The notes under the pieces were generated by a model. It ran no database searches, was not told where the DNA came from, and saw only the letters and a list, made by a program, of their open reading frames with translations. A stretch of 58,776 bases of DNA from Desulfobacteraceae bacterium (GTDB lineage: Bacteria > Desulfobacterota > Desulfobacteria > Desulfobacterales > UBA2174): positions 1 to 58,776 of the forward strand of contig JAQVTF010000002.1 of assembly GCA_028700185.1 (NCBI GenBank), given 5' to 3'. Positions 11,826-24,325 of this stretch are shown piece by piece. Both the position numbers and the translations under genes were made by a program. The stretch's first letter is position 1; every line of letters begins with the position of its first letter.

Positions 11826-13289
11826 TTACAGCAGGCGTCCGCCGCTTTCCGGCCAACGCCGCACCAAGTTGCGGGAAGCGTCGGTGATGGTGATGGTAAT
11901 GCCGTGATCGCCGTCCAGGCGATGCGTTGCGCAGGAAATTCATGGGTCGTAGGCGCGCACCGCCATTTCGATCCGGTTGAGAATCCCCTCGTCCACCTTG
12001 CCGTCATGGATCAACTCCCGGGCCGCCTGGTTGACGCTCATGTTGATGGGCCCGAGGTTGTGGGTAGTCCCCACGATCATGTTGGCATGGCGGATCAATC
12101 CGTTTTCGTCGGTGGTGTAGTCGTGAATCAGGGTGCCCCGCGGCGCCTCGACACAGCCGATGCCGCGGCCGGCTCTCGGTTCCACCTTGGCCCGGACGTT
12201 GGGATTGGTGATTTCCGGGTCTTCCAGGATCTCGATGGCCCGTTCGCAGGCGTAGACCTCCTCGATGAGCCGGGCCCAGTGATAGAGCAAGGTCGCCTGG
12301 GCCGGACGGCCGAAGTGCTGGCGGAAGGCCTCCAGCTCGGCCTGGGCCCGGGGCGTGGAAATGTGGTCGGCCACGTTGATGCGTGCCAACGTGTTGGACC
12401 GGTATACACCCCGGGGTTGGTCCAGATCCAGGGAGAAACCCTCGTCCCAGCACCGCGCATAGGGAAACTTGCCGTAGGAATAGGGCAGCACCTGTTCGCC
12501 GATGTAGTCGGTGTAGTCGTTGGGGGAGAATTCGGTGATGCTGCCGTCCGGCTTCATCAGGCGCAGGTTGCCGTCGTAGAGGTTCAACGCCCCGTCGTCG
12601 TCCACCGTGCCGATGAAACCGGTGTTGATGACGCCGATGGTCGTGATGGCGTCCATGTACTTGGGGAAAATCTCCTTCTTGGCAAAATCCATCGTGAACA
12701 GGGCGAAATCCAGGATCTGGCGCATCCGGTCGAGGATTTCCAGGCGCTGATCCTCGCGCATCGGCTTGGAAAAGCCGCCTGGCACCCCCGCAATGGGATG
12801 GATCGCCTTGTTGGAGAACTGGTCCAAGGTCATCTTGGCCAGGTGACGCATCTTGACCACCCGCTGCGCCAACTCCGGATTGGCCTGAACGATGCCGATG
12901 ATGTTGCGCACCGCGTAATCGGTATCCGGACCGATGACGAAATCGGCCGCCGCCAGGAAAAAGAAATGCAGCAGCTTGTCTTCAGCGTGGGAAATGGTCT
13001 GCATCAACTCGCGCAACTTGCTGCCTGTCGGCGTCGGGGTGACGCCGAAGCAGCCGTCCACGGCCTTGTTGGCGGCCAGATGATGCATCCAGGGACAGAT
13101 GCCGCAGATGCGGCTCACGATGCGCGGCAGTTCTTCGGCGGGTTTGCCTTCCACGAATTTTTCGAACCCGCGCATGGACAGGATGTTGACCCGCGCCTGG
13201 CTCACGTTGCCCGTATCGTCTAGTTCGATACCGATGGAAGCGTGCCCCTCGATGCGGGTGATGGGCTGAATGTTGATAACCCGGGACAT
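11826..13289 (-). CDS. mvhA: Mvh/Vhu-type cytoplasmic [NiFeSe] hydrogenase large subunit. The in-frame TGA at 11940-11942 is read as selenocysteine.
   Basis: N-terminal RIEGH and RICGICP motifs. The ORF track ends at ...VRAYDP + TGA. The same frame continues ISCATH RLDGDHGITITITDASRNLVRRWPESGGRLL to TAA at 11826-11828, restoring the DP[C/U]xxCxxH nickel-ligand motif plus a cleavable tail. Confidence 0.85.
11907..11923 (-). promoter_or_regulatory. candidate bacterial SECIS hairpin for the mvhA UGA
   Basis: The mRNA reads AUCGCC-UGGAC-GGCGAU (6-bp stem, 5-nt loop) and begins 16 nt after UGA. It has the same loop and spacing as the mvhD hairpin. Confidence 0.55.
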
Positions 13290-13293
13290 GGTT

Positions 13294-14235
13294 TTACGAC
13301 TCCTTTCTTTTACCCGCCGGCCGCAACAGGCCGTGGGCGCCGGCGAAACGTAGCAGCGACACGCTCTCGGGCAGGCTTGCTAGATCGATTCCGTTGGAAG
13401 CCAGGGCGTTGAGCATGTCCAGGCGCGGGTTGCCGTTCTGGCGTACCGGCCCGTAGCAGCCCCGGCAGGGAACCCGGGCCGCGATGCACCGCGGCGGTCC
13501 GTCGATCCCGCCGCAGCCGGCCCGGGTGACCGGTCCCATGCACAAGAACCCCTGTTCCAGCAGGCAGCGCATCTCGTCCAGAGGAGCGTCGGGATCGGCG
13601 TACACCGGTGCTTCGAGGAAACGCTTCAGCTTCTTGAGTTGCCCCTTTCCCTCGCGTCGGGTCGGGCAGACGTCGCAGACGCTCTTTCCCGGCAGCACGG
13701 GGGTTTTTCCTTCCACCAACGCCGTCAGGGCGGAAAAGATGTGGTCCGGGTGGGGCGGACAGCCGGGCAGATAGATGTCCACGGCGATCTTCTCGTCCAA
13801 CGCGTAGCAGCGGTCGAGCAGGGGTGGAACGATGTTCATATCCGGATGACGCTCCGGCGCGTCGGTGGTCTCGGTGGTGTAGTAGCGGTGGAGAATCTCT
13901 TCCGGGCTGTAGGCGTTGGACAGGGCTGGAATCCCGCCGTGGGTGGCACAGGTGCCCAGGGCGATGATCGTCCGACAGCGTTTGCGCATCTCCAGGGCCA
14001 CTTCCAGGTGCTCCGCGTTACGAATGCCCCCACTGATCAACCCCACATCGGCCTCGGGAATTGCGAGATGAACACCGTCGCCGAGCTGGCCGAAGTACTT
14101 GTGATCCATCAGGGCCGGGATGTGCACGAAATCGGCCACCTTGAGCACCTCCAGCAGCCGCTCTCCCATGTCCAGGATCGAAATCTCGCAGCCGGCACAG
14201 GAGTTGAGCCATTCACTTGCCACTTTTACCGTCAT
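13294..14235 (-). CDS. mvhG: Mvh-type [NiFe] hydrogenase small subunit (no Tat signal, cytoplasmic)
   Basis: MTVKVASEWLNSCAGCEISILD..., later GTCATHGGIP and multiple Cys clusters. There is no twin-arginine leader. Confidence 0.9.
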   Translation of the reverse strand: MTVKVASEWLNSCAGCEISILDMGERLLEVLKVADFVHIPALMDHKYFGQLGDGVHLAIPEADVGLISGGIRNAEHLEVALEMRKRCRTIIALGTCATHGGIPALSNAYSPEEILHRYYTTETTDAPERHPDMNIVPPLLDRCYALDEKIAVDIYLPGCPPHPDHIFSALTALVEGKTPVLPGKSVCDVCPTRREGKGQLKKLKRFLEAPVYADPDAPLDEMRCLLEQGFLCMGPVTRAGCGGIDGPPRCIAARVPCRGCYGPVRQNGNPRLDMLNALASNGIDLASLPESVSLLRFAGAHGLLRPAGKRKES

Positions 14236-14250
14236 CTCTGATTCCTCCGT

Positions 14251-15369
14251 CTAAATCTTCACCCTCACCGAGGGGGCGCCCAACTCCTGCCGGAAGGCCG
14301 CGGCACTTTCCTTCTTGCGCCGCGACCATTCGTGCACCTTTTCCAGGGCGGCACTGGCGTAGCGGTGATCGTCCTGGTAGCGAAAAGTCTCCAGCGCCCC
14401 TGCACTGCGGGCATCGGAGAACACCGCCCGGCCAAGGGGAGTGCGCATGATGGTGGTGGTCCAACCCTCCCGGGCGCCGATGCCGCCGAAGGCGATATCG
14501 GCGAATTCCGCGGCATAGTCCGGGCAGAAACGGCAGGCGTAGCGGCGGATCGCCGCCAGGTCCGCCAACGGAATCGTTTTGATTTCCCCGTTGTTCAGGT
14601 GGAGCATCAAGGCTTCCTTGATATTGATCTTGCGCACCTGGTCCCAGTCGAAGCCATGGGCCTCGGCCAGCGCTTGGCGCTGTTTTTCTCCAAAAACGAA
14701 GTTGCCCGAACAAAACAGACCGAAGCAGAACTGGATCGCGTCCGAGGGAACCAGCCCTAACGTCTGCATACGGCGCACCGATTTGATCTGACAGGGAGTG
14801 CCCACCAGCGCCACCCGGTGCAGCCCCTTTTTGACCATGGGGTCGAATTCTTCGATGGAAGAATAGGTCATGTACTGGTCGCTGAAGCTTTTCATCCCGT
14901 GGCTGGTGTCGAAAAAAAAGCCGGCCGATTCGAGGATGTCCTCGCGGGTGGTGGCCAGGAAGGGGCGTCGCTGAAACGGCCCCACCTGTTGGGCCACGAT
15001 GGCCCCGTCGATCCGTCCCCGGTCGAAGAGATGCAGCAACAGGGCCGTGACCACACCGCCGTCGGTGGCCCGCTGGCGCACGGTCTCATCCATGGCCCGG
15101 GCCACGGTGGATTCCATGATCCGCCCCATGGGTTCACTCCAGGCGGCCCGCCGTCGGGTCTCTTCCTCCAGTTCGTCCACTTCCGGACAGATGGCATGGC
15201 ACAACCCGCACTCGATGCACTTTTCGATATCCGCATAGCGCGGTTTACCGTCTTCATCCAGTTCCAGCGCCCCGTAGTTGACGGCCGTGCAGAAGGTCAC
15301 GCAGCCTCCGCAGCGGTGGCAGAGCCCTGGTTTCTGGACTTCCTGGATCAGGTCGAAAAAGGTTTTCAT
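14251..15369 (-). CDS. FrhB/FdhB-family flavo-iron-sulfur protein (coenzyme F420 hydrogenase/dehydrogenase beta-like) with an N-terminal 2x[4Fe-4S] ferredoxin
   Basis: CHRCGGCVTFC...CIECGLCHAICP, then DGGVVTALL...VGTPCQIKSVR...CRFCPDYAAEFADIAFGG. Confidence 0.8.
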   Translation of the reverse strand: MKTFFDLIQEVQKPGLCHRCGGCVTFCTAVNYGALELDEDGKPRYADIEKCIECGLCHAICPEVDELEEETRRRAAWSEPMGRIMESTVARAMDETVRQRATDGGVVTALLLHLFDRGRIDGAIVAQQVGPFQRRPFLATTREDILESAGFFFDTSHGMKSFSDQYMTYSSIEEFDPMVKKGLHRVALVGTPCQIKSVRRMQTLGLVPSDAIQFCFGLFCSGNFVFGEKQRQALAEAHGFDWDQVRKINIKEALMLHLNNGEIKTIPLADLAAIRRYACRFCPDYAAEFADIAFGGIGAREGWTTTIMRTPLGRAVFSDARSAGALETFRYQDDHRYASAALEKVHEWSRRKKESAAAFRQELGAPSVRVKI

Positions 15370-15393
15370 GATCGTCTCCTCTCGCCGGCGCCA

Positions 15394-15834
15394 TCAGGCG
15401 GCGCTGTCCACCGGCGCTTCCGGCACCGCCACGGGGTTGGGGCCCAGAGACCGGATCTTCTCGGTAAAACGGGTCACCACCTCGGCAAAGCGCGGGGCTT
15501 CGGCGGAGGATACCCACTCGATGGCGAACCGCTCTGGCTCGATCCCCAAATCCTCGAGCACGATATGAATGGCGGCGGTCCGGTTCAGGGCCTTGGCATT
15601 ACCGTCCAGGTAATGGCATTCACCGAGGTGTCAACCCATGACGATGACACCGTCGGCACCCTTCTGCAGCGCCCCCACCACCAGGTCTGGGTGCACCATC
15701 CCCGAACACATCACCCGCACCGCACGCATGTTGGGCGGGTACTGAAGGCGCGACACGCCGGCCAGGTCGCCGCCGGCATAGGCGCACCAGTTGCACAGAA
15801 AGCCGATGATGACAGGCTCAAAATTGTCGGCCAT
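15394..15834 (-). CDS. mvhD: MvhD-type hydrogenase delta subunit. The in-frame TGA at 15631-15633 is read as selenocysteine.
   Basis: GFLCNWCAYAGGDLAGVSRLQYPPNMRAVRVMCSG...GADGVIVMG + TGA. The same frame continues HLGECHYLDGNAKA...ERFAIEWVSSAEAPRFAE... to TGA at 15394-15396. Cys-type homologs carry G-C-H-x-G-D/E-C-H-Y here. Confidence 0.85.
15597..15615 (-). promoter_or_regulatory. candidate bacterial SECIS hairpin for the mvhD UGA
   Basis: The mRNA reads CAUUACC-UGGAC-GGUAAUG (7-bp stem, 5-nt loop) and begins 15 nt after UGA. Confidence 0.55.
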
Positions 15835-15863
15835 GATGAGATTCCTTTCTAAGAATGGGGAAA

Positions 15864-16352
15864 AATGACTTAAGTGACTAAAAACTGAGTGACTAAAATT
15901 ACGAGTGACTAAAGTGACTAAAAACTGAGTGACTAAAATTACGAGTGACTAAAGTGACTAAAGTGGTGGTGTCGCTGCGCTCCGGTTTTTATATAACTGG
16001 CAGAATTCATTCACTTTAGCTCACTTTAGTCACTTTAGTTCACTTTAGTTCACTTGACACTCTAGATCACTTTGGCTTTTTTAGTGACTAAAATTACGAG
16101 TGCCTAAAGTGGTGGTGTCGCTGCGCTCCGGTTTTTATATAACTGGCAGAATTCATTCACTTTAGCTCACTTTAGTTCACTTTAGTCACTTTAGTTCACT
16201 TGACACTCTAGATCACTTTGGCTTTTTAGTGACTAAAATTACGAGTGACTAAAGTGACTAAAGTGGTGGTGTCGCTGCGCTCCGGTTTTTATATAACTGG
16301 CAGAATTCATTCACTTTAGCTCACTTTAGTCACTTTAGTTCACTTTAGTCAC
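15864..16352. repeat. AT-rich, ORF-free array of about three composite palindromic units (146-154 nt) built from phased GTGACTAAA / TCACTTTAG 9-mers around a roughly 45-nt core
   Basis: The core AAGTGGTGGTGTCGCTGCGCTCCGGTTTTTATATAACTGGCAGAATTCAT occurs at 15961, 16107 and 16261. 15928-16049 is identical to 16228-16349 (122 nt). There is an exact 40-nt tandem duplication at 15881-15920 / 15921-15960. Seven exact GTGACTAAA copies lie in 15874-15962. The array fills the hdrA-mvhD intercistronic gap. Confidence 0.9.
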
Positions 16353-16359
16353 TTTTTTT

Positions 16360-19300
16360 TCATTTCACCAACGCCGCCTCCACCTGGGCCTCGAGCTGGT
16401 CCAGGGTGAATCCGTGTACCAGGACGCCTCCCTTGGGACAGGTGGCCTCGCAGAGTCCGCATCCCTTGCACAGGGCCGGATCGGTCTTGATGCGTTTGTG
16501 CACGGTGCCGTTTTCGGCCTGGAATTCTTCCAGGGAGATGGCCCGGTACGGGCACACATCCACGCACAGGGCACAGCCGTCGCATTTGTCGGTGACGAAA
16601 CTCTTGATGGCATCGAGCTGCATTTCGTCCCGGTCCAGCAGAATCGCGGCACGGGCTGCCGCCGCCTGGGCCTGGGCGATACTCTCGTCCACCGGCTTGG
16701 GGTAGTTGCACAGCCCCGCCACGAACAGGCCGTCCACGGACATGTCCACCGGTCGCAGCTTGGGATGGGCCTCGTTGAGAAACCCGTCCTCGTTCTGGCC
16801 GCACTTGTACAGCTCCACCAGGGACCGATTCGGGTAGGGTTCAATGGCCGACGCCAGCACGAGGTAGTCGACGTCAAACTCGAGGGGCATCTGGAGAATC
16901 GGGTCGAAGGCCGTTACCGTCACCCCGTCGCTGCCCGGGGCGACCCCGGGCTTGCGATCCACATCGTAGCGGATGAAAATGACCCCCAGGGCCCGGGCCT
17001 GCTGGTAGAGCAGCTCACGCTTGCCGTAGGTACGAATGTCCCGGTACATCACGTAGACCGGCATCTCCGGCTGGAGGGTCTTGAGGCGGATGGCGCTTTT
17101 CATGGTGTGGGTGCAGCAGATGCGGCTGCAGTAGGGCCGCTTCGGCTCGCGGGAGCCCACACACTGGATGAAGGCCACCCCGGCGGCCTGCCGGATCTCG
17201 TCCGCATGCCCCTCGACGAAAGCGTCGAACTCCAGGTGGGTCATCACCCGGTCGCTCTCCCCGTAGCCGTACGCCTCGGGCACCGATTCCCGGGCGCCCA
17301 CCGCCACCACGGCAGCCCCGTAGCTCACGGCACGGGTTTCTCCGTCGACTTCGATGCGACTGACAAAATTGCCCACCGATCCCACCGCGGTCAAGAGTCG
17401 GGCGTTCTTCATCACCTGGACCCCCGGGTGGGCTTCCACCTGACCGATCATGGCTTCAAGCATGGGCCGAATCGGTTCCCCCGTCTCGGTTTCGCCCAAA
17501 CGCCAGGCGTTGCCCCCGAGGCGCTGGCCTTTTTCCAGCAGCACGGTGGGAATATCCCGGTCAGCCAGGGTCAGGGCCGCCGTCATGCCGGCGATGCCAC
17601 CGCCGATGACCAGGGCCTTGCGGGTCACCGGTACCCGCAGCCGGCCCAAGGGCGCCATGCGGGACGCCTTGGCCACGGCCATGCGCACCTGGACCTTGGC
17701 CTTTTCGGTGGCCTGTTCGGGCATTTTCTGGTGCACCCAGGAATTCTGGTTGCGGATGTTGGCCATCTCGATGAGGTACGGGTTGAGGCCGGCCTCCTGA
17801 AGCGTCTCCTGGAACAAGGGTTCATGGGTGCGCGGGGTACAGGCGGCCACCACAATCCGATTGAGACCGTGTTCGGCGATCTTCTTGGCGATGAGATCCT
17901 GGGTGTCGGCCGAACAGGTGAACAGGTTGTTGTCCACAAACACCACGTTGGGCAAAGTGGCGGCATAGGCGGCCACCGCCTTCACGTCCACCACGCCGGC
18001 GATGTTGATGCCGCAGGAACAGACAAAAACACCGATGCGCGGGGTCTCTCCGGCCACGTCCCGTTCGTCCGGATAGGTCTTCTCGTGTGTCAGGGCCCCC
18101 CGGGCGGGCAGCATGAGGTGAGCCGCCTCGGCGGCGGCGGTGGAGGCTTCGGCCACCGAGCGAGGGATCGCCTTGGGCCCCTGGAAGGCCCCGGTGACAA
18201 AAACCCCGGGACGGGTGCTGCACACCGGATGGAAATAATCGGTCTTGGCGAAACCGTAGGCGTCGAGCTCGATGCCGAAGGCCGCCGCCAACTGCCGGGC
18301 GTCCGCCGGCGCCTCCAACCCCACGGACAGGACCGTCATGTCGAAGGTTTCCACCTGCGTCTGCCCATCTTCGGTGGTGTACCGCAGGCTGACACCGTGC
18401 CCGTCGGGGCCCGGGTCGATGGAGTGGGGCCGAGCCCGGATAAACTGCACCCCCTTGGCCCGAGCGTCTTCGTAGAAGCGTTCGAATTCTTTGCCCGGAC
18501 TGCGGATGTCCATGTAAAAAATGCTCTGTTGGACCTCGTCGCCGGTGAGGTGCTCGGCGGTGACCAGGGACTGCTTGATGGCATACATGCAGCAAACGCT
18601 GGAACAGTAAGCATTGGTGCAACGGTTGGTGCTGCGGGAGCCCACGCACTGGATCCAGGCGATACGGCGGGGTTCCCGGTTGTCCGAGGGGCGCTTGAGG
18701 TGCCCCATGCAGGGCCCTCCGGCCGAGAGCAGTCGTTCGTACTCCAGACTGGTAACCACATCGGGGATCTTCTTGTAGCCGTAGAAATCATACGGTGACG
18801 GGTCGAACGGCTGGAAACCGGGGGCCAGAATCACCGCCCCCACTTGGAGATCGAAAAACTTTTCCTCGTCGTCGAAACGGATGGCGCCGGTGGGACAGAA
18901 CTTCTCGCAGGCCCGGCATTTGCCCCGGGTCAGATAGATGCAGTGCTCGGGATCGATGGCATACTTGAGCGGCACCGACTGACCGTACTTGATGTAGGCC
19001 GCCTTGCGCTTGTTGAGCCCCATGTTGAAGGCGTCATCGACCCGTTTGGGACATTTTTCCGCGCACAGCCCGCAGGCGATGCACTTTTCCATGTCGATGT
19101 AACGGGGGTGTTGCTTGACGGTGACGGTGAAGTTGCCCGCCTCGCCCTTGACATCGACCACTTCCGAAAGGGTAAGCAAATTGACGTTGAGATGCCGGCC
19201 GACCTCGACCAGTTTCGGAGAGATGATTCACATGGCGCAATCGTTGGTGGGATAAGTCTTGTCCAACTGGGCCATGACGCCGCCGATGCCGGCGGTCTTT

Positions 19301-19407
19301 TCCACCATGTGAACGTAATAGCCGGACTCGGCCAGGTCGAGGGTCGCCTGGATGGCGGCGATGCCCCCGCCGACCACCATTGCCGCTCCAATGGGAGATT
19401 GAGACAT
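16360..19407 (-). CDS. hdrA: tandem (double-module) HdrA-family flavo-iron-sulfur protein. The in-frame TGA at 19228-19230 is read as selenocysteine.
   Basis: ATG at 19407 with an AAGAGG RBS. The sequence reads [20 protein letters not shown]...[12 protein letters not shown] + TGA + [12 protein letters not shown]..., joining the 16360-19179 ORF in frame. Cys homologs carry FPTxDC(S/A)xCI at this point. It has ferredoxin CxxCxxCxxxCP motifs and a second FAD module ([15 protein letters not shown]). Confidence 0.85.
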
Positions 19408-20196
19408 GGAAACCTCTTTTTTGTTTTCAGAAAAAGTTAAAGGGGTTGCTGCCTGACCGGGCACCGTGTGGTGCCCGGACGCCATCGCGGCCCGCCAAGC
19501 GTCCTCTTCGATCCCCGCATCCTGGCAAAACCGCTCCAGTTCCTCCTCCTGGATCAGATACTTCTTGCCGATGGTGGGCCGGGCGGGCAATTTGCCGGTT
19601 TTAATCCAGTTGGTGACGGTGTTGCGGTGGACCCCCAATTGGGCGGCGAGAGTGCCGACCCGAAACATAAGGGCGTTTCCACCCCCGCCGCCGGCTACGG
19701 TACCAGACGGGGGCACAAGGATATCCATGATCCACTGACACATGGGCCTCACGGCAGCCTGCACCGAAGCGGAAAGGCCCGGATGGACCTCGGATGGGAT
19801 ATCGGCCGGATTGACCACCAGAATGCGCACGTCGATGTCGGTGTGCTGTCGCAGCTCCTTGAGCATATTGGTGGTGGGAAACTGGTGCAGCGAATAATCG
19901 ACGATCTTGGCCGGCTGGATTTCGTCGAGCCCGATTTCGCGGATTTCGCCGGGGGAAGCGTCCTTGAGGGCCATGGCGTCCACGATGATGATCTGCCGCG
20001 GATATTTTCGCGACAGGAGCATATCGAAAAGAATGTCGCGCACCGCGGTGCCCACATCCAGGTAGGCCACGTCGGACGGTAGTCGATACTCGGCTTCAAG
20101 CAGTCGAATCACTTCCGCCCCGAACCCGTCGTCACCGAACAGAGGGTTGCCGCAGCCAAACACCAGCCGGGGTTTTTCGTAAATGCGCTTGAGCAT
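19408..20196 (-). CDS. hydrogenase maturation endopeptidase (HycI/HybD/FrhD-like) fused to a C-terminal excisionase/MerR-type HTH. No stop codon precedes hdrA.
   Basis: [16 protein letters not shown] and SLHQF protease motifs, a GGGGG linker, then [47 protein letters not shown]. The frame runs uninterrupted into hdrA, and the first stop is the TGA at 19228. The end given here is simply the base before the hdrA ATG. Confidence 0.7.
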
Positions 20197-20557
20197 GATC
20201 CAGGCCCCCAAAGTCTTGGATTAAAAAACAATAACAATTACCGATTTGGGCAATATAGTCAATAGAGATTGTGCAAAAGATGCCATTTTTAAAATCGTCG
20301 GCCTACACCAATTTCTTTTTTCCGGCAAGAAAAATTTTAATCAACACAGATTCCCCACCCGGTTGCGGGGGGTGAAAAATGCCAAGGAACGAAGGTGCAG
20401 GTTTCCTCCTTCGGCGCGACGCTGAGGAAAAGTTTCCGAACTTACGACAAAAGGGGGGGGGGACCACAAAAACAGATATCGGCGCTACAGCCGGCCAGCA
20501 AGCCACCGGCGAGAGTTGGAAATTTCCAATAATGCCCTTCAACCGGCCGGGGACGCC

Positions 20558-20920
20558 TCAGGCGGGTCCGCCATCCCTTCGCGCCGCCGCCAAGGCCCGG
20601 GCGAGCCGGTCGCTGATCTGGCCGGTCAGCGCCGCTACTTCCTGGAGATGAGCGGCCACTTCGGTTCGTCCCTGGCGCTGGGCTTCGGTTACCCACTGCT
20701 GGTAGTCGCAAAGATGGTCTTCGTTATGCCGATGCCAGTGTTCCAGGCGCTTGACCAGTTTTTCGGCAAAGGGCATCGCCGCCGGCGCATGGGAGGAATG
20801 AGGATGGTCGTGCCCGTGGCCGTGGCCGTGGCCGTGCTCATGGTGAGGATGGGCATGATCGTCGTCGTGAGGATGGGGGTGGTGGTGATGGGCGTGCCCT
20901 TGCTCGTGGGAATCGTGCAT
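20558..20920 (-). CDS. histidine-rich small protein (possible Ni/metal-binding), unknown family
   Basis: Strong RBS (GGAGGA, 6 nt) then ATG. The N-terminus is MHDSHEQGHAHHHHPHPHDDDHAHPHHEHGHGHGHGHDHPHSSH, followed by a helical-looking C-terminal half containing HWHRHNEDHLC. Confidence 0.75.
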   Translation of the reverse strand: MHDSHEQGHAHHHHPHPHDDDHAHPHHEHGHGHGHGHDHPHSSHAPAAMPFAEKLVKRLEHWHRHNEDHLCDYQQWVTEAQRQGRTEVAAHLQEVAALTGQISDRLARALAAARRDGGPA

Positions 20921-20943
20921 CGTTTTCCTCCGTCAGCCGGATT

Positions 20944-20983
20944 TTCAAAACGGCGCTGAGCTCGAAGCCAGCGCCGTTTTGAA
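20944..20983 (-). terminator. perfect 15-bp inverted repeat. It may be an intrinsic terminator after hup and/or an operator overlapping the promoter of the His-rich gene.
   Basis: TTCAAAACGGCGCTG-N10-CAGCGCCGTTTTGAA. On the minus-strand RNA the stem is followed by UUUUGAAAAU. Confidence 0.5.
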
Positions 20984-21010
20984 TGTACATCGGCAAAAAA
21001 TCCCTGTCAA
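20982..21010 (-). promoter_or_regulatory. candidate sigma-70 promoter for the His-rich gene
   Basis: The minus strand reads TTGACA - 17 nt - TACATT. The -10 element abuts the inverted repeat. Confidence 0.4.
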
Positions 21011-21113: not shown

Positions 21114-21386
21114 TCAATCGGCAACGGCGTCGCGGAGATTCTTCCCTGGCGCAAAAATCACGGAACGGCGGGCTGGAATATCCAGCGGCGCGCCGGTTTT
21201 CGGGTTCCTTCCGGTACGGGCCCGACGTTCCACCACCTTGAAGGCACCGAAGCCGGTCAACGTCACGGTTTCCCCCGCTTTCAGCGCCTCGCCGATGTGC
21301 GCCAACAGACTCTCCACGGCACTGCGGGCGGCCTTGCGGTCGGCAATCTCTTTTTCGACTTCGGCAATCAGTTCTTGTTTATTCAT
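21114..21386 (-). CDS. hup: HU/IHF-family DNA-binding protein
   Basis: MNKQELIAEV...GFGAFKVVERRARTGRNPKTGAPLDIPARRSVIFAPGKNL. AAGGAG RBS. Confidence 0.9.
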   Translation of the reverse strand: MNKQELIAEVEKEIADRKAARSAVESLLAHIGEALKAGETVTLTGFGAFKVVERRARTGRNPKTGAPLDIPARRSVIFAPGKNLRDAVAD

Positions 21387-21507
21387 CCGTTTTGTACTCC
21401 TTTCGCTTGTCCCATCTCTGAGCCGGGCACAATCCCCTCCATCGCCTTTTAAGCGAATGATCGCCGCGGCGTCGATTTCACCGAAAGCGAGCACCGGCCC
21501 ATCACTC

Positions 21508-22390: not shown

Positions 22391-23797
22391 TCAGTTTTTG
22401 TAGTCTTCCTTGTGGATGTGATAGCGGGTGAGCAATTTGTGAAGTTGACGCGTGGTAATGCCGGCATGGGCGGCCGAATCCTTGATCCGTCCCTTTTTGG
22501 CGGTGAGCAGTTCCTTGAGATACTGTCTTTCGATGTGTTCGATGCCCCGGCGTCGCACTTCGGCCAAGGTGTGGGAGGCATCCATGGGCACCTGGGCCAC
22601 GGGGGCGGTACTGAACAGTTCGCCGGGAAAACTTTCCGGGGTCAACAGCTTGCTTGTTTCTAGAATATAGGCCCGTTCGATGAGATTTTCCAGCTCCCGG
22701 ATGTTCCCCGGCCAATCGTAGGCCTCGAAGGCCCTGAGCACTGCCGCGTGCACCCCGGTGATCTCTTTGTTGTAGAACTGGTTGAGCCGCTGGACGAACA
22801 GCTCGGCCAACAGTGGTAGATCCTCCTTGCGGTCGCGCAAAGGCGGAATCTCGATGGGAAAAACGTTGAGTCGGTAGAACAAATCCTTGCGAAAGGTGCC
22901 GGCTTCAGTCATCTGCTTGAGATCCATGTTGGTGGCGGCGATGATACGCGCCTGGGTTTCGAGGGTCTGCTCCCCCCCTACCCGCTCGTAGGTACGCTCC
23001 TGGAGCACCTTGAGCAGCTTGACCTGGGCGGCGGCGCTGATGGTGGCGATCTCATCGAGAAAAATTGTTCCGTCACGAGCGATTTCGAACTTGCCCAGTT
23101 TGCGCCGGGTGGCCCCGGTGAAGGCTCCCTTTTCGTGACCGAACAGTTCGCTTTCCAGCAAGGTGTCGGGTATGGCGCCGCAGTGGACGCTGATGAACTG
23201 GCGATCCCGTCGGTTGCTGTGCTTGTGAATCAACTGGGCCATGATCCCCTTGCCGGTACCGGTCTCGCCGGTGAGCAGCACCGTTGTCTTGGTGGGCGCC
23301 ACTGATCGCAACTTCTGGTAGACCCCGCGCATCAAGGGACTGCGAGTCCGCACCAGCTCCAGGGCATCCTTTTCCCAGAATTGGTCCCAGAGATAGTTGA
23401 GTTCGCTTTCGCGGATGCGACTGTCGAAAAAATGATCGATGATCAGTTTGACTTCGTCGGATTCCACCGGACAGAGCAGGTAGTCGTTGGCCCCGGCCTT
23501 GACCGCCGCCACCGCCTCACGCAGGGTCGACTGGGTGCACATCACCACAACACCGGCGGTGGGATAGACCTGGAAAAAACGGTTGAGGGCCTCCTTGTGG
23601 TCCCGGGGATTCTGATCTTCCGCCAAAGTGGCCAGCTCGATGAAAGTGACCTCGTAGCGTTGGGCCTGAAACAGCTCGAATCCCCGCGCCAGGGTATGTG
23701 CCCCTTCAACGCGATAGCGACCCTTGAGGGCTCCTTCGATGGCGCCACGGTGAGATGAATCGGCAGAGATGACGAGAATGCGTTTCAAGGCGCTCAT
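22391..23797 (-). CDS. sigma-54-dependent Fis-family transcriptional activator with an atypical receiver domain
   Basis: AAA+ core with GETGTGKG Walker A and the GAFTGA loop (EKGAFTGA), and a C-terminal Fis-type HTH. The N-terminal REC-like domain lacks canonical residues. Confidence 0.9.
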   Translation of the reverse strand: MSALKRILVISADSSHRGAIEGALKGRYRVEGAHTLARGFELFQAQRYEVTFIELATLAEDQNPRDHKEALNRFFQVYPTAGVVVMCTQSTLREAVAAVKAGANDYLLCPVESDEVKLIIDHFFDSRIRESELNYLWDQFWEKDALELVRTRSPLMRGVYQKLRSVAPTKTTVLLTGETGTGKGIMAQLIHKHSNRRDRQFISVHCGAIPDTLLESELFGHEKGAFTGATRRKLGKFEIARDGTIFLDEIATISAAAQVKLLKVLQERTYERVGGEQTLETQARIIAATNMDLKQMTEAGTFRKDLFYRLNVFPIEIPPLRDRKEDLPLLAELFVQRLNQFYNKEITGVHAAVLRAFEAYDWPGNIRELENLIERAYILETSKLLTPESFPGELFSTAPVAQVPMDASHTLAEVRRRGIEHIERQYLKELLTAKKGRIKDSAAHAGITTRQLHKLLTRYHIHKEDYKN

Positions 23798-24325
23798 GCA
23801 CAACCCCGGTGGCAAGTTGAGGAGAAAGGGCGTCTATCGCCCACCGATTTGCCCCGTCGGCGGGCAAAAAGCGATGCCTGGCGCTGTGTCGGCTCTATTA
23901 GCCGAAATCGTCTCCGAATGACAGCATTTTCTAACCCCGTCACCGCCACCGGGAGGCGGAATTTTGGCCGGGGGGAAAAGGTTTCGAGTGTCCGGAACAG
24001 GGCGGAATCAGGTATCGGGTTTCAGGTGTCGCCTCCTATCGTGTCCGGTTTGCCCAAGGAGGTGACCGCGGTGCTTGACGCTTGCCGATCGTCTTGCGCC
24101 GTCTCGTTCCGATAAACATGGATTCCCCGGATCGAGTCCAGGGCAGGCTCTGCTTTCGCAGGAATGACGGAAAAAACCGGATCCATCCGGCATTCTTCGA
24201 CCGCCGGTCTCCCCGGGCCTGACCCGGGGTTCATATCGAAGGACTGAAGATTGCCGGAATGTTTTAAGCAATTAAAACATGGTCGCAAATGAGCAACGCC
24301 CCGGAGGCAACATTGGGAATTTTTG

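Follow-up and report, generated by a model that had tools for sequence, protein, structure and literature searches.

We analysed a 58,776-nt stretch of DNA, hereafter the window, corresponding to positions 1 to 58,776 of contig JAQVTF010000002.1 in the assembly GCA_028700185.1 of a Desulfobacteraceae bacterium (GTDB lineage Desulfobacterota; Desulfobacteria; Desulfobacterales; UBA2174), and focused on a minus-strand reading frame in which a hydrogenase maturation protease, a helix-turn-helix (HTH) domain and the N-terminus of HdrA follow one another without interruption. From ATG 20196 the frame is free of stop codons up to the TGA at 19230-19228 and encodes 322 aa, or 327 aa if the upstream TTG 20211 is taken as an alternative start. 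Pfam and NCBIfam searches divide it into a HycI-type protease, an HTH_17/excisionase-type domain and the first 59 residues of HdrA, the FAD-binding N-terminus of which begins at aa 264 of the fusion and matches NAD_binding_8 at aa 274-309. The complete absence of stop codons between protease, HTH and the hdrA ATG, already reported in the first-pass annotation of this DNA, was thus confirmed. The locus comprises the following features:

20246-20276, minus strand: candidate operator remnant, one perfect and one degenerate TGCACAA box, 57-80 nt 5' of the protease ATG

19717-20196, minus strand: HycI/HybD-type [NiFe]-hydrogenase maturation endopeptidase domain, aa 1-160 (Pfam HycI, TIGR00072, AlphaFold2 model)

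19669-19716, minus strand: protease-HTH junction, aa 161-176, with GGC GGC GGG GGT GGA, read as GGGGG, at 19692-19678

19666-19668, minus strand: ATG of M177 ('MFRVG'), a possible internal start 2 codons downstream of the ancestral HTH start position

19465-19668, minus strand: BldC/Xis-like winged HTH domain, aa 177-244 (HTH_17, TIGR01764, PDB matches, Foldseek)

19408-19464, minus strand: disordered HTH-HdrA linker, aa 245-263, ending in a Shine-Dalgarno (SD) sequence, AAGAGGT (19418-19412), that is read in frame as K-E-V

16360-19407, minus strand: hdrA, 1015 codons from its own ATG at 19407-19405, with a selenocysteine (Sec) TGA at 19230-19228

11826-15834, minus strand: rest of the operon, mvhD, an frhB-like gene, mvhG and mvhA (Pfam and reading of Sec codons)

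The open frame recurs far beyond this assembly. The 1.2-kb stretch containing it was recovered from 20 public metagenome runs that belong to at least 13 studies (word share 0.89-1.00), sampled from landfill, sediment, biofilm, wastewater, oil field and biogas habitats, whereas a search among RNA-seq runs found none that contains it; contigs of four different studies cover 19150-20350 with no gaps and at most one substitution, including the interval 19400-19700 that had been flagged for possible indels; the identical 322-aa product is encoded on 13 contigs; and the same open layout is found in three diverged relatives (78, 73 and 61% identity). A sequencing or assembly error would find a suitable seat in the G-run at 19692-19678, a type of site prone to indels, and no support for one was found. 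The 20 runs and the gap-free agreement of four independent studies rule out such an error as the source of the frame, the layout shared by three diverged species stands against it as well, and we regard it as barely conceivable.

Both domain calls of the first-pass annotation were borne out by profile searches. The protease module was placed at aa 11-160, with support from TIGR00072 (123.1 bits against a cut-off of 47.45) and from Pfam HycI, which covers aa 28-158 (PF01750; E 6.5e-17, 62 bits against a cut-off of 23). Residues D22/D23, D73 and H104, which we take to correspond to the metal-binding ligands of HybD, are invariant across 23 sequences, and in Foldseek the AlphaFold2 model matches HybD (1cfz), HycI (2i8l) and also 2e85 with TMt values of 0.67-0.71. 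The scores nevertheless fall below the equivalog cut-offs (101 against 135 for frhD, 61 against 152 for hupD and 49 against 119 for hycI), and the protein is therefore a member of the superfamily that stands outside the named FrhD/HybD/HycI subfamilies.

The HTH module, at aa 179-223, is recognized by HTH_17 (PF12728) over aa 180-223 (E 6.7e-11; 42.7 bits, cut-off 27) and by TIGR01764, 'excise' (37.8 bits, cut-off 28.8). Among solved proteins, a mycobacteriophage Xis (4j2n) and BldC (6amk/6ama) are nearest in sequence; by fold, the best Foldseek matches are the BldC-DNA complexes 6amk and 6ama (TMt 0.65-0.70, rmsd 2.2-3.5 Å, 28-32% identity), followed by RacA, Xis and MerR regulators. In the AlphaFold model, the protease domain is predicted with confidence, the pLDDT is ~90 over the HTH and below 50 at aa 165-172 and aa 245-274, and there is no coiled coil, the HTH being trailed by two short helices and a disordered linker only. 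Measured against the three open relatives, the protease has a dN/dS of 0.08-0.14, the HTH one of 0.18-0.33 and the HdrA N-terminus one of 0.10-0.15, whereas both linkers, with dN of 0.55-1.0, are nearly unconstrained. Relatives show hardly any variation in the recognition helix, HRNT[VI][TR]NWI. The confident model, and the constraint on a domain flanked by drifting linkers, indicate that the HTH is in all probability functional.

Relatives were collected with the motif HRNT[VIL][TR]NWI from one genome per GTDB species, yielding 356, nearly all of them from Desulfobacterota, and 80 loci were read. An exhaustive phmmer search with the HTH gave 291 representatives at E<=1e-3 and 24 at E<=1e-10 (~90-160, 254, 309 and 1121 aa); a search with a 63-aa HTH-only protein returned just 4 matches, the word index being too sparse for short queries. 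The cytoplasmic Mvh-hydrogenase/Hdr operon of Desulfobacterota usually opens with the protease gene, followed by an open reading frame (ORF) that starts with ~60 residues of HTH and runs into HdrA or an HdrD-like protein, and in most loci the HycI protease gene lies ~500 nt upstream of the HTH motif. In all 37 HdrA-type loci in which protease and HTH are not fused, the HTH opens its own ORF, with an ATG or GTG 15 codons before HRNT and a GGAGG SD 6-9 nt upstream, and the HTH-HdrA linker of 78-150 nt, although poorly conserved, is in frame and stop-free. Since the other two frames of this linker are stop-free in just 9 and 11 loci, and shuffles predict 9.5, continuity between HTH and HdrA is a selected norm and no oddity of the window. 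Both 'protease-only' candidates examined as controls, L090 and L091, have an HTH-HdrA downstream. In ~40 further loci (Syntrophobacteraceae, Desulfacinum, Desulfarculales), the HTH heads an HdrD-like Fe-S/CCG protein. The first-pass annotation had singled out the missing stop before hdrA and the attachment of an HTH to a protease as the two anomalies of the locus; the comparison shows the first to be a conserved feature of the family, and the HTH not to be peculiar to the protease, while the fusion itself is real. Of the orthologue survey that it proposed, the HTH is present in relatives, and a stop before hdrA is absent from all 37 non-fused loci.

Throughout the loci read, the HTH is fused to a protease, HdrA or an HdrD-like protein, the exceptions being L012 and the stop-bearing protease-HTH forms described below. 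Among the carriers, Desulfocicer vacuolatum DSM 3385 (L044) encodes a 1280-aa HTH-HdrA-MvhD protein, the first ~60 residues of which are the HTH by sequence, HTH_17 having missed the 1e-5 cut-off of the scan; a 1106-aa HTH-HdrA protein and a 488-aa HTH-HdrD-like protein are Pfam-confirmed. A second public version of the L044 gene, in RefSeq, has 1171 aa and starts at an internal Met before the HdrA Rossmann motif, so that the HTH is annotated away. Fusions carry the public names 'excisionase family DNA binding protein', 'FAD-dependent oxidoreductase' and 'hydrogenase maturation protease', and public annotation conceals the HTH domain. The phmmer search also returned proteins of a different architecture, with 4-10 tandem HTH copies in ~230-1090 aa (P0130, P0133, P0144 and others). 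Full-text literature searches turned up no account of an HTH attached to HdrA or to a maturation protease, the only nearby item being the winged HTH motif of BamF taken up below. The component families are all known, and the HTH-Hdr fusion with its candidate operator is of more interest than the extra fusion in the window.

That extra fusion lies at the other junction. In relatives, protease and HTH usually occupy different frames, the stop of the one overlapping the start of the other as ATGA, or share a frame that is interrupted by a stop. The protease stop was lost in one small clade, turning the HTH into a C-terminal domain of the protease, and in the subclade of the window the older continuity of HTH and HdrA is still open. 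The lost stop codon offered in the first-pass annotation as an alternative therefore survives in part: a stop has been lost, but it is the one between protease and HTH. Protease-HTH fusions form ~20 protein clusters among hundreds of relatives of the fused protease, and a neighbour-joining (NJ) tree of the protease domain places the fused loci in one small clade nested among non-fused lineages. The HTH of this clade has no start codon of its own, except in the window, where an ATG lies 2 codons off the ancestral position with GGTGG 10 nt upstream of M177; the other fused lineages L001, L004 and L006 have no start codon at the M177 position. The GGGGG codons of the window occupy the position of the HTH-gene SD in relatives, in which GGAGG precedes, by 6-9 nt, an ATG at the codon that reads GCC in the window. 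Three junction states can thus be distinguished, namely, protease followed by a separate HTH-HdrA (the common state), protease-HTH-HdrA (the window) and protease-HTH followed by a separate HdrA, and the window looks like an intermediate in the passage of the HTH from HdrA to the protease.

Whether the remaining continuity into hdrA matters in the window is less clear. In 16 of the 20 fused clusters, the frame is closed by a stop 12-35 residues past the HTH, at two different positions, or by a frameshift, and only four, the window included, are still open into hdrA; measured against the 37 of 37 open non-fused loci, these closures imply that the constraint was relaxed once the protease carried the HTH. 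They also weigh against a role for the long frame of the window: the open frame in the four lineages may be unselected, the per-lineage chance of a stop-free linker in shuffles being 0.33-0.54. Two NJ trees place the open lineages differently and do not settle whether the open state was retained or regained. The continuity could be a leftover without function in the lineage of the window, an option that we consider quite possible, if less likely than not; the associated view, to which we give the same tentative weight, is that the working products are protease-HTH, like those of the stop-bearing sister lineages, and an HdrA translated from the SD and ATG of its gene, with read-through being wasteful and ending at the Sec UGA. 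Besides the 16 closures, the nearly unconstrained linker residues and the intact SD and ATG of hdrA speak for a leftover. Conversely, the linkers of the four open lineages, nearly unalignable and 93 or 96 nt long, are all in frame and stop-free, with a joint shuffle probability of ~0.03 before the frame is counted, a value to be read with the caveat that the lineages are not independent.

The likely products follow from the signals around the start of HdrA. The TGA at 19230-19228 falls where Cys-type homologues have a Cys (NDCASCIILPKLVE; NDCAS-C-IILPKLVE) and the frame stays open to 16360; therefore, this TGA is a Sec codon. The hairpin located 19 nt past the Sec UGA has a folding energy of -12.5 kcal/mol, with a non-significant z-score of -0.02 against shuffles, and no Rfam match. 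The SD preceding the hdrA ATG forms a duplex of -6.5 kcal/mol, and 24 of 30 Sec-type fusions, as well as the window, have GAGGT-N5-6-ATG at the canonical start of HdrA, compared with none of six Cys-type fusions; apart from AAAGAGGT-N5-ATG, the linker DNA is unalignable between relatives. This element is likely to be a conserved internal initiation site that gives rise to nested isoforms. Most HdrA would be made from its own SD and ATG 19407, with the HTH-less form as the main product and the long form as a minor or regulatory one. Ribosomes starting at the protease ATG 20196 would make protease-HTH, read into hdrA and stop at the Sec UGA, releasing the 322-aa protein; less often, Sec insertion at the UGA would yield a protease-HTH-HdrA fusion of 1278 aa. 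An internal start at 19668 is possible, though not conserved.

The first-pass annotation had suggested that the efficiency of Sec decoding sets the nature of the product. In its strongest form, the locus would be a selenium sensor, in which decoding of the Sec UGA locks the HTH onto full-length HdrA, and low selenium frees a 322-aa or ~146-aa HTH protein that alters transcription. The HTH ORF does end at the Sec UGA in 30 of 36 HdrA-type fusions, the operon contains three Sec codons, and the internal SD and ATG set Sec-type fusions apart from Cys-type ones, although this last contrast may stem from a single clade. Such coupling is, however, not needed to explain the layout: six Cys-type lineages retain the HTH-HdrA fusion without any UGA, HdrD-like carriers have their Sec ~300 residues away or none at all (L025, 488 aa), and most protease-HTH lineages, namely, the 16 closed clusters, end before hdrA. 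We judge a selenium sensor very unlikely.

A candidate target for the HTH emerged from the DNA upstream of these operons. Across 81 loci, the 150 nt upstream contain 4.9 perfect TGCACAA boxes per kb, compared with 0.11 per kb elsewhere. Of 66 pairs of adjacent boxes, 33 have a spacing of exactly 9 bp and 5 one of 18 bp. Within -160 to +10 of the operon start lie 45 of the 66 pairs with 9-bp spacing, and most of the remaining ones are found at -168 to -236 or, in loci with a more distant protease, immediately ahead of the HTH gene. The boxes accompany HdrA-type and HdrD-type carriers, with the protease present or absent, and relatives have 2-6 of them at 9-bp spacing in the position that corresponds to that of the window boxes (for example, TTGAACAATTTGCACAATTTGCATAA in L013); three perfect boxes together never occur in known loci. 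Covariation between helix and box was sought, and both the recognition helix and the box sequence proved nearly invariant in the loci read.

Several points count against assigning these boxes to the HTH, particularly in the window itself. The 58.8 kb of the window contain no pair of boxes at 9-bp spacing, only the perfect box TTGCACAA (20276-20269, minus strand) and, 23 bp away, the degenerate box TTGCCCAA (20253-20246, minus strand), and the operator of the window may be decayed or different. The link between boxes and HTH is one of position and periodicity, so the boxes could belong to another factor, and sigma54 activators are conserved beside many of these operons. The first-pass annotation had pointed to another target, the AT-rich region at 15864-16352, which is specific to the window: the gap between hdrA and mvhD holds, at 15928-16354, a 146-bp unit repeated 2.8 times, with runs of a 9-10-bp repeat (CTAAAGTGA) in both orientations and long hairpins. 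This array is confined to one spot of the window and absent from 91 related loci, in which the gap measures ~70-175 nt, and it looks like an inserted palindromic repeat element and not a conserved regulatory region. Rfam searches of 15000-21000 returned nothing relevant, only chance miRNA-like matches caused by the long hairpins of the array.

A sigma70 consensus scan found no minus-strand promoter upstream of the window protease, and the sigma54-like element present there (TGGCATCTTTTGCA, 20286-20271, minus strand) is perhaps non-functional because its spacing is GG-N8-GC instead of GG-N10-GC. Many relatives (L001, L004, L007, L009, L013, L014, L039 and L061) have a good sigma54-type TGGCAC-N5-TTGC 60-90 nt before the protease start, with GGGGAA...TTCCCC palindromes farther upstream, and in L001, L004, L007 and L009 a sigma54 activator is encoded directly and divergently upstream of the protease gene. 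In another group (L019, L023, L034, L036, L045, L057, L074 and L086), two boxes precede a CTTGACA hexamer and two abut the start codon (…TCGCATAAATTGCACAACATG) in the absence of an SD, an arrangement that points to a sigma70-type promoter with boxes on either side and to a protease mRNA that is leaderless or nearly so. In front of the HTH-HdrD-like gene of L053, L060 and L062, the boxes are reversed (TTGTGCAC/TTGTGCAA, 9-bp spacing), and the orientation of the array is therefore not fixed across families.

Downstream of hdrA, the operon continues on the minus strand with mvhD (15834-15394; Sec TGA 15633-15631), the frhB-like gene (15369-14251), mvhG (14235-13294) and mvhA (13289-11826; Sec TGA 11942-11940), with the same synteny in L001, L004, L007 and L009. 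MvhA ends in DPU..C..H (DPU-ISCATH) and a C-terminal extension of 30 aa, of the kind that such proteases cleave, and is likely the substrate of the fused protease. The three in-frame TGA Sec codons of the operon, in MvhA, MvhD and HdrA (11940-11942, 15631-15633 and 19228-19230, minus strand), are the reason why gene callers split mvhA, mvhD and hdrA. On the other side of the protease gene, the window encodes, on the minus strand, a 120-aa histidine-rich protein (20561-20920; HHHHPHPHDDDHAHPHHEHGHGHGHGHDHPH), an HU-type DNA-binding protein (21117-21494) and an NtrC-type sigma54 activator (22394-23815). The histidine-rich protein has no Pfam match, and its homologues in L001 and L006 carry the label DUF8180.

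As the explanation that best covers these observations, we propose that the three-module frame arose by gene fusion and that the HTH is a candidate autoregulator of its operon, carried by nested isoforms; we hold this account, taken as a whole, to be reasonably probable. The HTH would bind the TGCACAA direct repeats of 9-bp spacing head to tail, as BldC does, at proposed sites that follow the promoter and precede the first start codon of the operons. Being tethered to an enzyme of the same operon, it could make transcription responsive to the assembly or redox state of that enzyme, in the manner of PutA and other trigger enzymes. Alternatively, the HTH could be a protein-protein or assembly module that binds no DNA and docks, for instance, onto another subunit in the way BamF docks onto BamI. 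A preprint (10.64898/2026.04.10.717634) reports that BamF contacts BamI through a winged HTH motif in the HdrA-related class II benzoyl-CoA reductase complex, and archaeal HdrA has an extra N-terminal part of ~130 residues at the place of the HTH (model positions 132-191 align to the bacterial N-terminus). Against a docking role, the occurrence of the HTH on three carriers (N-terminal on HdrA and on HdrD-like proteins, C-terminal on the protease), via disordered linkers, fits an autonomous function better, and its recognition helix is nearly invariant, periodic 9-bp boxes co-locate with it and its best fold matches are DNA complexes. We consider an assembly module unlikely and retain autoregulation as the preferred reading.

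In its broadest form, this reading would extend to Desulfobacterota at large: control of Mvh/Hdr operons by an enzyme-borne BldC-like HTH that forms head-to-tail filaments on 9-bp TGCACAA repeats of the operon leader, with feedback from the carrier according to its cofactor, assembly, maturation or redox state, and with long and short HdrA isoforms produced by internal initiation. We put this forward as a speculative extension only. Were it true, the window would represent a rare state in which protease, regulator and HdrA can be made as one chain of 1278 aa, and this chain could tether the protease to the very hydrogenase complex that it matures. To our knowledge, the regulation of flavin-based electron-bifurcating Hdr/Mvh complexes in sulfate reducers and syntrophs is largely unknown. 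The HTH occurs in at least 356 species-level genomes and, in the loci read, nearly always inside an enzyme of the operon, with a periodic candidate operator before most of them; together, they offer a concrete and testable regulatory handle. Cultured relatives include Desulfosarcina widdelii PP31, Desulfatibacillum alkenivorans DSM 16219, Desulfocicer vacuolatum DSM 3385 (Cys-type) and Desulfacinum infernum (HdrD-type). The locus is also a clean natural example of a domain that appears to have moved from one gene to its neighbour via a triple-fusion state.

Each part of the system has a counterpart among known proteins. The protease shares with the HycI/HybD/FrhD endopeptidases the fold, the Asp/Asp/His positions and an operon large subunit with a C-terminal extension; the known enzymes are, however, single-domain proteins of ~150-200 residues, whereas the window protein carries a DNA-binding domain at its C-terminus and runs into hdrA with no intervening stop. 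The HTH shares with BldC and Xis the small, MerR-like winged fold that lacks a coiled coil, but those are free-standing proteins of 55-70 residues, whereas here the domain belongs to a larger enzyme of the operon. Binding of BldC to 9-bp direct repeats is head to tail, with one subunit per 9 bp and variable copy numbers (PMC5859096), and the candidate boxes of the relatives are likewise direct repeats at exactly 9 bp, in 2-6 copies; the BldC site is AATTxxxxC, compared with the TGCACAA box predicted here from sequence alone. Classical MerR regulators, by contrast, have a long dimerising coiled coil, an effector-binding domain and, in place of direct-repeat candidate sites, a palindromic operator within a promoter whose spacer measures 19-20 bp.

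Nested isoforms made by internal initiation are known from the long and short forms of IF2, ClpB and CheA. The likeness lies in an in-frame SD and ATG inside a longer ORF, here conserved across many lineages; the difference is that the extra N-terminal part is a DNA-binding domain, accompanied in the window by a protease, and that the isoforms are sequence-based predictions. A parallel for the whole is the trigger enzyme PutA, a repressor of its own operon in which, as in the HTH-HdrA fusions, a redox flavoenzyme (here HdrA) and a DNA-binding domain are joined in one chain, with candidate operators located in the operon leader. The DNA-binding domain of PutA is a ribbon-helix-helix, a fold other than that of the HTH, and control by enzyme state is proposed here by analogy. 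Unlike PutA, the Hdr fusions probably also give rise, through the internal SD and ATG, to an HdrA that lacks the HTH.

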